Shown here: positions 3,523-4,046 of the stretch, piece after piece
How positions within the stretch are numbered: the first letter of the stretch is position 1
How the letters are laid out: each line of letters opens with the position of its first letter
Notes under the pieces: generated by a model
Databases searched by the model: none
Told to the model about the DNA's origin: nothing
The model's input: only the letters and a program-made list of their open reading frames with translations
Assembly: GCA_012033205.1 (NCBI GenBank)
Contig: JAAUSO010000041.1
Coordinates: 1,115 to 33,114, forward strand
From: Richelia sp. SL_2_1
GTDB lineage: Bacteria > Cyanobacteriota > Cyanobacteriia > Cyanobacteriales > Nostocaceae
DNA: 32,000 nt
Direction: 5' to 3'
Translations under genes and position numbers: made by a program

Positions 3523-3885
3523 ATGCAGCAAACTGAATTTTCTTTTATTTTACCTCAAGGATATCTCGACTCGGAAGGTAATACTCATAAAGAAGGTATG
3601 ATGAGACTTTCTACTGCTTATGATGAAATTACTCCGCTCAAAGACCCAAGGGTACAGAGAAATCCGGGTTATTTGGTGATTATTCTTTTAACAAGAGTGA
3701 TTACTAAATTAGGAACTTTAGAGCAAATTAATACTAAAGTAACTGAAGGTTTGTTTTCAGGAGATTTAGTTTATTTGCAGGATTTTTATCAAAGAATTAA
3801 TCAAAACGGTCATAGTCGTCTTCGGGTAGCTTGTCCCCACTGTGAAGGTGAGTTTGAGGTAGAAACTGTTCCGGTGGGGGAGTAG
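3523..3885 (+). CDS. Phage-tail-assembly-chaperone-like protein with a C-terminal CxxC zinc-ribbon-like motif
   Basis: 'TEFSFILPQGYLDSEGNTHKEGMMRLSTAYDEITPLKDPRVQRNPGYL' matches the small conserved protein found after the tube gene in eCIS loci (from memory). 'CPHCEGEFEVE' is at the end. The ORF track starts at TTG 3505; ATG 3523 is the alternative start. Confidence 0.6.
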   Translation: MQQTEFSFILPQGYLDSEGNTHKEGMMRLSTAYDEITPLKDPRVQRNPGYLVIILLTRVITKLGTLEQINTKVTEGLFSGDLVYLQDFYQRINQNGHSRLRVACPHCEGEFEVETVPVGE

Positions 3886-3908
3886 TTTGCTACCCCTCAG
3901 AAAGACTG

Positions 3909-4046
3909 ATGGAGGAGGTAGCTTACCTTGCTTATCATTTTCACTGGTCTTACGAGCAGATAATGATCATGGAACACCGAGAACGTCAGCAGTGGGTGGC
4001 ACAAGTAGCGCAAATTAATCAGCGATTCAACGAGCAAAGCAAGTAA
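3909..4046 (+). CDS. Small conserved eCIS-associated protein (DUF6760-like), not in the ORF track
   Basis: Hand translation of the frame ending at TAA 4044-4046 gives '(VVCYPSERL)MEEVAYLAYHFHWSYEQIMIMEHRERQQWVAQVAQINQRFNEQSK'. The 'EEVAYLAYHFHWS...E..ER..WV..I..IN' pattern is what I recall for DUF6760. The first ATG is at 3909, but similarity seems to begin upstream of it. Confidence 0.6.
   Translation: MEEVAYLAYHFHWSYEQIMIMEHRERQQWVAQVAQINQRFNEQSK

Follow-up and report, generated by a model that had tools for sequence, protein, structure and literature searches.

Does the stretch of DNA behind the first tube gene of a cyanobacterial injection-system operon encode two small proteins, or one protein in a short and a long form? 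The question arises in a 32,000-nucleotide stretch of Richelia sp. SL_2_1 (hereafter the window, whose positions are used throughout), where a chaperone-like ORF ends just past a run of five G and a DUF6760-like frame continues from it one base back. The original prediction left three options: a frameshift like that of phage lambda G/GT, a homopolymer sequencing error, or an N-terminally short protein starting at 3909. After comparative sequence analysis, the highly probable reading of this junction is a programmed -1 ribosomal frameshift like those of lambda G/GT and P2 E/E+E'.

Locus and reading frames

The window carries a contractile injection system (CIS) operon of the eCIS/tCIS superfamily. 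Sheath, tube, LysM tube initiator, hub/spike, gp25, baseplate J, a P2-I-like protein and the spike tip are encoded together; neither the Cis15 ATPase nor the Cis16 cap turned up in the scanned part of the window. The features around the junction are:

3046..3486, + strand: tube protein 1 (Pfam Phage_T4_gp19, E=2.3e-44), adjoining the chaperone on its 5' side
3523..3885, + strand: chaperone-like zero-frame ORF, 120 aa, the short product; alternative TTG start at 3505
3876..3882, + strand: putative slippery heptamer G_GGG_GAG, with zero-frame codons GGG 3877-3879 and GAG 3880-3882
3879..4046, + strand: predicted -1 extension, the DUF6760 domain, 55 residues (GVVCYPSERLMEEVAYLAYHFHW...NEQSK) plus TAA 4044-4046
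3883..3885, + strand: zero-frame stop TAG, abutting the heptamer
3883..3888, + strand: 6-nt spacer from heptamer to stem
3889..3922, + strand: stem-loop, candidate frameshift stimulator, beginning 6 nt past the heptamer
3909..3911, + strand: ATG, the likely choice of gene callers, in the hairpin loop with no Shine-Dalgarno (SD) sequence before it
4071..4559, + strand: tube protein 2 (Pfam Phage_T4_gp19, E=6.7e-35)
4591..6096, + strand: 501-aa protein, tape-measure candidate by position only

Tube protein 1 matches the tube proteins of AlgoCIS, Anabaena tCIS (All3324), Afp1 and Pvc1 among PDB sequences. The chaperone pair lies directly 3' of tube gene 1, and tube gene 2 stands before the candidate tape measure. 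The pair had been placed just upstream of the tape-measure gene; this has to be corrected, since the two are separated by the second tube gene (4071-4559). The 501-aa protein has no match in Pfam, NCBIfam, PHROGs or PDB, and is a possible partner of the DUF6760 domain. A 45-aa ORF at 4571-4708 gave nothing useful against PDB.

The zero-frame ORF closes with CCG (3871) GTG GGG GAG TAG (3883-3885), and the G5 run occupies 3876-3880. The -1 frame is open from 3858, after TGA 3855-3857, and reads ..GGVVCYPSERLMEE.. / GRNCSGGGVVCYPSERLMEEVAYLAYHFHWS.. to TAA 4044-4046. Read through the slip site, the predicted long product has 174 aa (119 + 55). The junction coordinates first given for this site are right to the base. 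So is the description of ATG 3909-3911 as the first canonical start in the -1 frame, with only CTG 3906 upstream of it. The resulting ORF 3909-4046 is present in the window's ORF list.

Pfam PF20546 (DUF6760) scores 54.1 bits against the -1 frame, above its gathering score (cut-off 27). The match covers residues 12-60 of the stop-to-stop frame and profile positions 5-53 of 89. It begins at Tyr 3891, 18 nt ahead of ATG 3909, and not at the Met of 3909; the residues YPSERL, assigned in the original prediction to the conserved domain, do belong to it. Conservation of the -1-frame protein begins at the slip site itself, with the pattern GG[VIM]xx-YP. A scan of NCBIfam gave no match for either the chaperone or the DUF6760 part.

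These results bear on the reading that databases adopt for the more than 100 related loci described below, which are annotated as two separate genes. In the window, translation of DUF6760 would then begin at ATG 3909 and give a truncated 45-aa protein, or begin at a non-canonical codon past an SD-like G run. The ATG and its ORF do exist, GGGGGAG is similar to the SD core, and among database gene calls DUF6760 stands alone in about 280 cluster representatives. However, Met 3909 is unique to the window genome (other loci have Y, H, F, R, L or S at this position), it falls inside the hairpin loop without an SD, and it is preceded by the conserved GGV and by YPSERL, six residues conserved in the domain. 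Many of the stand-alone calls also begin at an ATG that is not conserved, taken in the -1 frame from the xxA TGT of a CxxC motif. A short protein from 3909 is thus very unlikely, and two separate genes in either form are highly improbable once the related loci are taken into account.

Comparison of related loci

Related loci were searched for with a profile of a trimmed 17-sequence DUF6760 core; an alignment of 74 diverse DUF6760 sequences is without a conserved stretch. The 110 loci compared were chosen solely by their DUF6760 domain and comprise 30 cyanobacterial loci and 80 others from about 12 other phyla and one archaeal MAG, with complete genomes among them.

DUF6760 lies in the -1 frame of an upstream ORF of ~110-170 aa in all 30 cyanobacterial loci, and the same arrangement holds in nearly all of the 80 loci from other phyla. 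At -15..-9 from the Tyr codon, 103 of the 110 loci have G_GGG_GAR or G_GGG_GGN. Locus L021 has another slippery run, G_GAA_AAG, in place of the G-run heptamer, and some loci have longer G7-G8 runs. No locus (0/110) has an indel between the heptamer and the Tyr codon, and the zero-frame stop falls 2-3 codons past the GGG codon in 92 of 110. An alignment of orthologues had been proposed as a check on the original prediction, and it shows the -1 order and the slippery run kept, with the heptamer at the same position. At the level of sequence, this combination of slip site and frame is far beyond chance.

The opposite pattern, orthologues with a start of their own and no conserved slippery run, did not emerge. 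In 22 of the 30 cyanobacterial loci, no ATG, GTG or TTG falls anywhere between YP and the nearest upstream stop of the -1 frame, and in 24 of the 30 the -1 frame is open upstream for at most 15 codons. Some support for separate genes comes from outside the cyanobacteria, where in 24 of 80 loci an ATG, GTG or TTG stands at -9 or -6 relative to Tyr, just past the G run; independent initiation of DUF6760 may occur in these. Against this, the codon at -9 is mostly GTA, GTC, ATT or ATC, and the G run is only 0-1 nt away from it, so it is too close to act as an SD. Independent initiation would also leave unexplained the fixed -1 relation, the placement of the zero-frame stop and the natural fusions described below.

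The same comparison bears on whether the split is an artefact or a product of decay, that is, a homopolymer sequencing error or a gene fusion that broke recently (pseudogene). Some platforms are prone to errors in G5 runs, and a few database entries are in-frame fusions. However, the out-of-frame arrangement recurs across many phyla in those 103 independent loci, complete genomes included, with the zero-frame stop set close behind the run. Nearly all of about 1,590 chaperone homologues are stand-alone proteins of ~120 aa (NCBI name 'phage tail assembly protein'), and only about four are in-frame fusions. Sequencing error, one of the options originally raised, is excluded because the arrangement is conserved in more than 100 independent assemblies, and the probability of artefact or decay as a whole is negligible.

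Stem-loop downstream of the putative slip site

The stem-loop consists of a 5' arm at 3889-3898, a loop at 3899-3911 and a 3' arm at 3912-3915 and 3917-3922, with A3916 bulged. Single-sequence folding of the window gives an MFE of -17.1 kcal/mol (z=-3.25), and 1 of 200 shuffles is as stable. The structure was read off the alignment and tested with pair counts and single-sequence folding; RNAalifold returned no consensus structure for the 110-sequence junction alignment.

Counted over the 110 loci, the two arms pair in 85% of cells, whereas slid partners do so in 30-61%. At the closing position GC is found in 54 loci, AU in 17, CG in 13 and GU in 4, and this pair covaries within the cyanobacteria too (AGC..GCT 17 times, GGC..GCC 5 times); the window's own clade has U-U there. 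Single compensatory changes occur in loci L091 and L052. Synonymous sites are constrained as well. The Val codon is GTA in 91 of 103, though the genomes span 33-76% GC, and the Glu codon is GAG in 106 of 110. Tyr(0) is TAC in 108 of 110, while Tyr(+42) is TAT in 53 and TAC in 46. Both stem arms fall within conserved coding sequence. Most stem pairs are invariant, so support for the structure comes chiefly from this synonymous-site constraint and from the one strongly covarying pair. Actinobacterial loci have a different stem, a perfect 9-bp one (ACGTACGCG/CGCGTACGT).

An upstream SD-like stimulator is a possibility only. A GGAG-type motif starting at -30, 15 nt 5' of the heptamer, is found in 40 of 110 loci, where it overlaps conserved Glu codons; at that position in the window it is absent.

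A rival to ribosomal slippage is transcriptional slippage. In the latter, RNA polymerase would add one G in the G5-G8 run, a fraction of the mRNA would be in frame, and the protein product would be the same. The slip site is indeed a homopolymer, of G7-G8 in some loci, and natural DNA variants with one extra G are in frame. However, most documented cases in bacteria involve A/T runs of about 7-9 or more, next to which G5 is short. The stem-loop conserved at exactly 6 nt downstream and the zero-frame register resembling X_XXY_YYZ are typical signs of ribosomal slippage, and L021 keeps the arrangement with G_GAA_AAG and no G run. We therefore consider transcriptional slippage highly improbable here.

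Probable chaperone identity and natural fusions

The product of 3523-3885 very probably serves a phage-tail-like contractile injection system as its tail assembly chaperone (TAC). It has a weak match among PHROGs to phrog_508 'tail assembly chaperone' (E=0.007), and its C-terminus is a CxxC zinc-ribbon-like strand pair. Among 17 diverse relatives, five match Pfam Phage_TAC_7 below threshold (best E=2.5e-4) and two touch Pfam Gp41_Mu with their N-domains. The window chaperone itself has no match to Phage_TAC_7 even at E<=10, and does not reach its gathering score. Its profile shows no similarity to P2 gpE, and a sequence search of PDB gave nothing useful.

Two of the natural fusions display the junction directly. 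It reads ..ERLGGVTRYP in P0003, encoded by DNA with a G7 run, and ..LEAGGMTGYP in P0036, with a G6 run; both agree with the predicted ..GGV..YP. A structure model of a natural fusion (pLDDT 85) matches predicted structures of phage TACs, among them Mu FS-gp41 (E=4e-3) and, from Burkholderia phage Mica, the 'Tape measure chaperone' (E=1e-3). The matches cover most of the length of the Mu and Mica proteins, but they are weak (TM 0.35-0.53), involve predicted structures only and have no counterpart at the sequence level. The best PDB match of the model is YqbN (3klu).

Comparison with known systems

The closest parallel is phage P2, in which gpE and gpE+E' are reportedly produced by a -1 frameshift at T_TTT_TTG within the operon FI-FII-E-E'-T-U-D. 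The P2 record (GenBank AF063097) annotates the -1 frameshift and the gene order FII-E-E'-T. Both systems have sheath, tube, chaperone and -1 extension, then the tape measure (in the window a candidate by position), hub, spike, a gp25-like protein and baseplate J. In both, the extension lacks a start of its own and the zero-frame stop lies a few codons past the slip site. By hhalign, the DUF6760 profile matches the P2 E' extension with 83.8% probability (E=7.9e-6), aligning G-A-V-T-F-P...FHWP of E' with G-G-V-x-x-Y-P...FHW of DUF6760. Pfam Phage_P2_GpE (PF06528) matches 18 of the 74 DUF6760 members, all sub-threshold, and the window extension scores 13.4 bits (cut-off 23, E=0.055), short of the gathering score. 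By these profile comparisons DUF6760 is likely a distant relative of P2 E', though no member of that family by Pfam's rule. The two systems differ in that the slippery run is T-rich in P2 and G-rich here, and here a stem-loop is conserved across phyla. P2 gpE has 91 aa, whereas the N-domain here has ~120 aa with a CxxC zinc-ribbon-like tail and stays below the Phage_TAC_7 (PF10109) threshold. Here, moreover, a second tube gene parts the pair from the candidate tape measure, and the element is a chromosomal injection system.

Phage lambda reportedly makes gpG and gpGT by frameshifting, and the frameshift of tail assembly chaperones is said to be conserved among long-tailed phages. As in lambda, a small ORF that follows the tube gene would undergo a -1 slip close to its end, giving a short and a long chaperone with a common N-terminus. 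The lambda heptamer, G_GGA_AAG, is also G-initial, and there too the arrangement is kept despite sequence divergence; we detected no sequence similarity of the chaperone/DUF6760 pair to lambda G/T. The lambda frameshift is not known to require a downstream structure, whereas the hairpin is strongly conserved here, and the domain roles proposed here rest on analogy. The frameshift cassette behind gamma and tau of E. coli dnaX combines A_AAA_AAG, a downstream stem-loop and an upstream SD-like element. This bacterial -1 frameshift shares the heptamer, the short spacer and the stable stem-loop with the junction studied here. In dnaX, however, the shifted frame ends at once and gives the shorter product, while the shift here would give the longer one, and the window has no SD-like motif at the corresponding upstream position.

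Another small protein of these systems is the spike plug Cis6/Afp6/Pvc6/Alg6, which has ~55 aa, is largely helical and is essential for assembly (PMC8894136, PMC8894135, PMC12546770). DUF6760 is likewise small, and the plug gene lies near the tube-initiator genes, but the plug has its own gene with its own start. We do not equate DUF6760 with the Cis6 plug: a phmmer search of all PDB chains with the DUF6760 frame (E<=10) gave chance matches only, with no match to any solved plug chain. These plug papers mention no chaperone or frameshift, and in the literature searched on contractile injection systems neither a frameshift nor DUF6760 is reported.

Proposed mechanism

The frame relation, heptamer, spacer and hairpin support the G/GT-like frameshift of the original prediction, and the lack of start codons, the natural fusions and the remote homology of DUF6760 to P2 E' add to this. 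The anatomy of the junction, its conservation, the RNA-level constraint, the fusions and the remote P2 E' homology are results of the analysis; from them we infer the slip, its frequency and the roles of the two domains.

Most ribosomes would stop at TAG 3883 and release the 120-aa short form. A fraction would slip one base back on G_GGG_GAG (3876-3882), where Gly-tRNA on GGG 3877-3879 would re-pair with GGG 3876-3878. Glu-tRNA may co-slip from GAG to GGA, forming two Watson-Crick pairs and one G-U pair. The heptamer is an imperfect X_XXY_YYZ because this A-site Glu-tRNA re-pairs imperfectly. The stem-loop at 3889-3922, 6 nt downstream, would lie at the mRNA entrance of the ribosome and aid the slip. 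Translation in the -1 frame to TAA 4044 would give the 174-aa form ...ETVPVG-GVVCYPSERL..., a chaperone joined to the DUF6760 domain. Its predicted tryptic junction peptide is VACPHCEGEFEVETVPVGGVVCYPSER; a slip on the GAG codon would give the alternative junction ..VPVGEVVCYPSER.

If the roles are as in lambda gpG/gpGT and P2 gpE/gpE+E', tube subunits would be coated or recruited by the N-domain that both forms have. The additional C-domain of the long form would attach the complex to the tape measure or tube initiator, and the tube would thereby grow to its proper length. A fixed slip frequency would set the ratio of short to long form. We also put forward, tentatively and as somewhat doubtful, a broader proposal: the G run and hairpin may be a host-independent -1 module that travels with CIS operons and works on bacterial and archaeal ribosomes, the fixed ratio of chaperone to chaperone-DUF6760 may be essential for the particle, and DUF6760 may be the domain that docks onto the tape measure or tube initiator.

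Implications

A programmed frameshift at this junction would place DUF6760, a domain of unknown function, in an assembly chaperone, as a second domain reached by frameshifting, and so give the family a concrete role. Hundreds of loci would then carry wrong annotations, some as two genes, others with no DUF6760 call or with one from an artefactual start. The tail-chaperone frameshift of phages would also be found in chromosomal injection systems, both in bacteria of many phyla and in at least one archaeal MAG. Conservation of the heptamer, the 6-nt spacer and the stem-loop is unusually high, so they may offer a clean natural model of prokaryotic -1 frameshifting. The recoding signal would have to be kept in heterologous expression of such systems and, if the host-independent module is real, expression or engineering from 'two-gene' annotations would fail without it.

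Junction and operon context

The original prediction had a DUF6760-like frame reached from a chaperone-like ORF by a -1 shift at a G5 run, and the sequence agrees with its coordinates and frames exactly. The last zero-frame codons are CCG GTG GGG GAG TAG (3871-3885). The -1 frame is open from after the TGA at 3855-3857, reads GRNCSGGGVVCYPSERLMEEVAYLAYHFHWS... and closes at the TAA at 4044-4046, with ATG 3909 as its first canonical start. The residues YPSERL, which had been suspected to be conserved, do belong to the domain: the Pfam DUF6760 (PF20546) alignment begins at Tyr 3891 (54.1 bits, cut-off 27), so 18 nt of the domain lie 5' of that ATG.

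By family matches, the operon on the + strand is a phage-tail-like contractile injection system (CIS). Among solved tubes, those of AlgoCIS, the Anabaena thylakoid CIS, Afp and PVC match its tube protein.

Features of the operon and junction
349-1539 and 1659-2795, + strand, two sheath genes
3046-3486, + strand, tube 1
3523-3885, + strand, 120-aa ORF
from after TGA 3855-3857 to TAA 4044-4046, + strand, DUF6760 small frame
3889-3898 with 3912-3915 and 3917-3922, + strand, stem (single-sequence fold)
4071-4559, + strand, tube 2
4591-6096, + strand, 501-aa protein without any family match
same operon, + strand, CIS_tube+LysM protein, gpD-like hub, gpV-type spike, gp25 and baseplate J
same operon, + strand, TIGR02243-like protein and P2-I-like protein
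same operon, + strand, fibre with S74 chaperone domain
16838-17266, + strand, CIS spike tip

An ATG ORF of 45 aa (4571-4708) lies directly 3' of tube 2, in the place expected of a Cis6-type plug gene, and overlaps the TTG at which the 501-aa ORF is called to start; searches of Pfam and the PDB gave no match for it.

Conservation of the junction

Loci were gathered by the DUF6760 domain alone, and the junction was therefore no part of their selection. Of 61 relatives whose whole genomes were searched, 31 have the domain, and 30 cyanobacterial loci were obtained in this way. The prediction had proposed looking in orthologous loci for a -1 arrangement with a slippery run, and this recurs in 30/30: relative to an upstream ORF of ~110-170 aa, DUF6760 is in the -1 frame, and the run starts exactly 15 nt 5' of the Tyr codon with no indel. 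The upstream ORF stops 5 or 8 nt 5' of that codon, except in L002, where the stop is later. Same-register G_GGG_GAR is present in 29/30; the only locus without a G run, L021 (minus strand, locus coordinates 1588-1659), has CCG GAA AAG, or G_GAA_AAG, at the identical position, so its long form would read ..AGKVLSYP. Two DUF6760 loci each occur in relatives' genomes G003, G007, G008, G015, G016, G026 and G031, and some relatives therefore hold two injection-system clusters.

Since the out-of-frame arrangement is conserved across loci, a homopolymer sequencing error, one of the options first considered, is excluded. Most cyanobacterial loci contradict an independent initiation of DUF6760. In 22/30, the stretch from the last -1-frame stop to YP contains no ATG, GTG or TTG, and the run is kept; a start upstream of YP together with an unconserved run would have counted against a frameshift. 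The upstream open stretch of the -1 frame is 15 codons or fewer in 24/30, and the position of the window's Met (ATG 3909) is Y, H, F, R, L or S elsewhere. Independent starts would also leave the fixed frame relation unexplained. The 281 DUF6760 cluster representatives in databases are mostly gene calls of 40-100 aa that begin 1-3 residues before YP or with 'MPxL' or 'MSPL' ~20 residues before it; a few further fusions are among them. The 'MPxL' ATG is the xxA TGT (CCN) of the chaperone's CxxC (CPxC) motif read in the -1 frame (window 3830-3845 and the corresponding place in many loci). These N-termini look like gene-calling artefacts, because that ATG is missing or stop-followed in most cyanobacterial loci.

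A search with the peptide pattern A[YF][VI]AYHFH, one genome per species, gave at least 595 loci, of which the best 80 were compared. These 80 include Chloroflexota, Acidobacteriota, Pseudomonadota, Myxococcota, Desulfobacterota, Actinomycetota (Streptomyces, Saccharothrix, Saccharopolyspora and others), Armatimonadota, Gemmatimonadota, Nitrospirota, Methylomirabilota, Bacillota and one Halobacteria MAG. Over all 110 loci, G_GGG_GAR or G_GGG_GGN stands at -15 to -9 from the Tyr codon in 103, the zero-frame stop follows 2-3 codons past the GGG codon in 92, and from the slip site on the -1 frame is GG[VIM]xx-YP; L043, L057 and L080 are exceptions to this common pattern. The Halobacteria locus (L112, a 14-kb contig in an archaeal bin) has a G_GGG_GAA heptamer, the usual stop placement and a GGCUACC/GGUAGC stem.

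A GGAG-type motif lies at -30 to -27 in 40/110 loci, overlapping conserved Glu codons and ending ~11 nt 5' of the heptamer, a spacing that matches the SD-like stimulator of E. coli dnaX. The window lacks it at that position; a GAGG lies at 3856-3859.

RNA stem-loop

The stem starts 6 nt 3' of the heptamer (3876-3882, G_GGG_GAG). In the window, 3883-3930 folds with an MFE of -17.1 kcal/mol (z=-3.25), and the 13-nt hairpin loop includes ATG 3909. The pairing seen in most loci is between GCUACC (codon -1 plus Tyr-Pro) and GGUAGC (Glu-Val-Ala), and CCUC/GAGG lengthens the stem.

On the 110-locus alignment, paired cells amount to 85%, against 30-61% with partners slid, and no shuffle matched the observed covariation score. 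RNAalifold gave no consensus structure from this alignment. The closing pair is GC in 54, AU in 17, CG in 13 and GU in 4; within cyanobacteria alone it covaries as AGC..GCT (17 times) and GGC..GCC (5 times). L091 (UAU/AUA) and L052 carry single compensatory changes.

Both arms are coding, which makes synonymous constraint the stronger argument for the stem. The codon before Tyr encodes a variable residue (G, S, R, C), yet ends in GC in ~90% of loci.

Codon use in the stem arms across genomes of 33-76% GC (offsets in nt from the Tyr codon)
Tyr(0): TAC 108/110 (Tyr 14 codons later: TAT 53, TAC 46)
Pro: CCC 88/110
Glu(+24): GAG 106/110
Val(+27): GTA 91/103

Six Actinomycetota loci (L081, L085, L099, L106, L107, L111) lack the GCUACC/GGUAGC stem and have another perfect 9-bp stem, ACGUACGCG/CGCGUACGU, from Thr-Tyr-Ala and Val-Ala-Tyr-Val codons. 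In these loci the candidate stimulator is swapped as a whole, not pair by pair.

Probable frameshift and predicted products

Judged from sequence, the junction is built like a programmed -1 ribosomal frameshift site of bacteria. The heptamer is in the correct zero-frame register, 6 nt separate it from a stable stem-loop, the zero frame stops at once, and the conserved -1 ORF has no start; together these features argue for this reading, and for the G/GT-like option raised originally. Transcriptional slippage could also yield a fused product; it fits poorly with the G5 run, the hairpin spacing and the G_GAA_AAG of L021.

Ribosomal frameshifting would yield chaperones of two lengths, like those of lambda (G/GT) and P2 (E/E+E'). 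The short form is 120 aa. Slippage of Gly-tRNA from GGG 3877-3879 to 3876-3878 would give a 174-aa long form, ...ETVPVG-GVVCYPSERL....

Searching with the fused sequence returned ~1,590 homologues, nearly all ~120 aa, covering the first part only and named 'phage tail assembly protein' by NCBI. A handful are in-frame natural fusions, and two contain the predicted junction: P0003 (..ERLGGVTRYP, G7 in the DNA) and P0036 (..LEAGGMTGYP, G6), the latter in a sheath-sheath-tube-X-tube neighbourhood as in the window. At the DNA level, natural in-frame fusions on metagenome contigs read GCC GGG GGG ATG (G6; L031 6270-6290) and CTT GGG GGG GTA (G7; L032 415-430); they may be genuine single-frame variants or errors in homopolymer length.

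Relation to known chaperones

Phage P2 (order FII-E-E'-T) has gpE and gpE+E' annotated as a -1 frameshift, with slip site T_TTT_TTG; its E' reads ..GAVTFPKNLSVDDLMADVAVIFHWPP... The DUF6760 profile matches P2 E' (83.8% probability, E=7.9e-6), and 18/74 DUF6760 proteins match Pfam Phage_P2_GpE below threshold. DUF6760 had no sequence match to the solved plug proteins Cis6, Alg6 and Pvc6. The N-domain is more distant: its profile gave no alignment to P2 gpE itself, 5 of its 17 diverse members touch Phage_TAC_7 and 2 touch Gp41_Mu, and the window's 120-aa protein weakly matches phrog_508 'tail assembly chaperone'.

In the AlphaFold model of P0003 (pLDDT 85), the N-domain is alpha/beta and the C-domain has three helices, with a zinc-ribbon hairpin and a linker modelled at low confidence. 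Among viral proteins, the model's top matches include 'Tape measure chaperone' (Burkholderia phage Mica) and Mu FS-gp41 (the product of a frameshift), together with T4-like 'baseplate hub assembly' proteins and several entries named 'tail assembly chaperone'. The best PDB match, of weak significance, is B. subtilis YqbN (3klu), which we take to be a PBSX/skin-type tail chaperone.

In the literature searched we found no mention of 'DUF6760', nothing relevant on frameshifts or chaperones in CIS, tailocins or phage tail-like particles, and neither a chaperone nor a frameshift in CIS structure and survey papers. The comparison suggests that chromosomal injection systems have kept the known phage tail-chaperone frameshift and conserve it tightly. 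By analogy, the two chaperone domains would bind the tube, the tape measure or the tube initiator.
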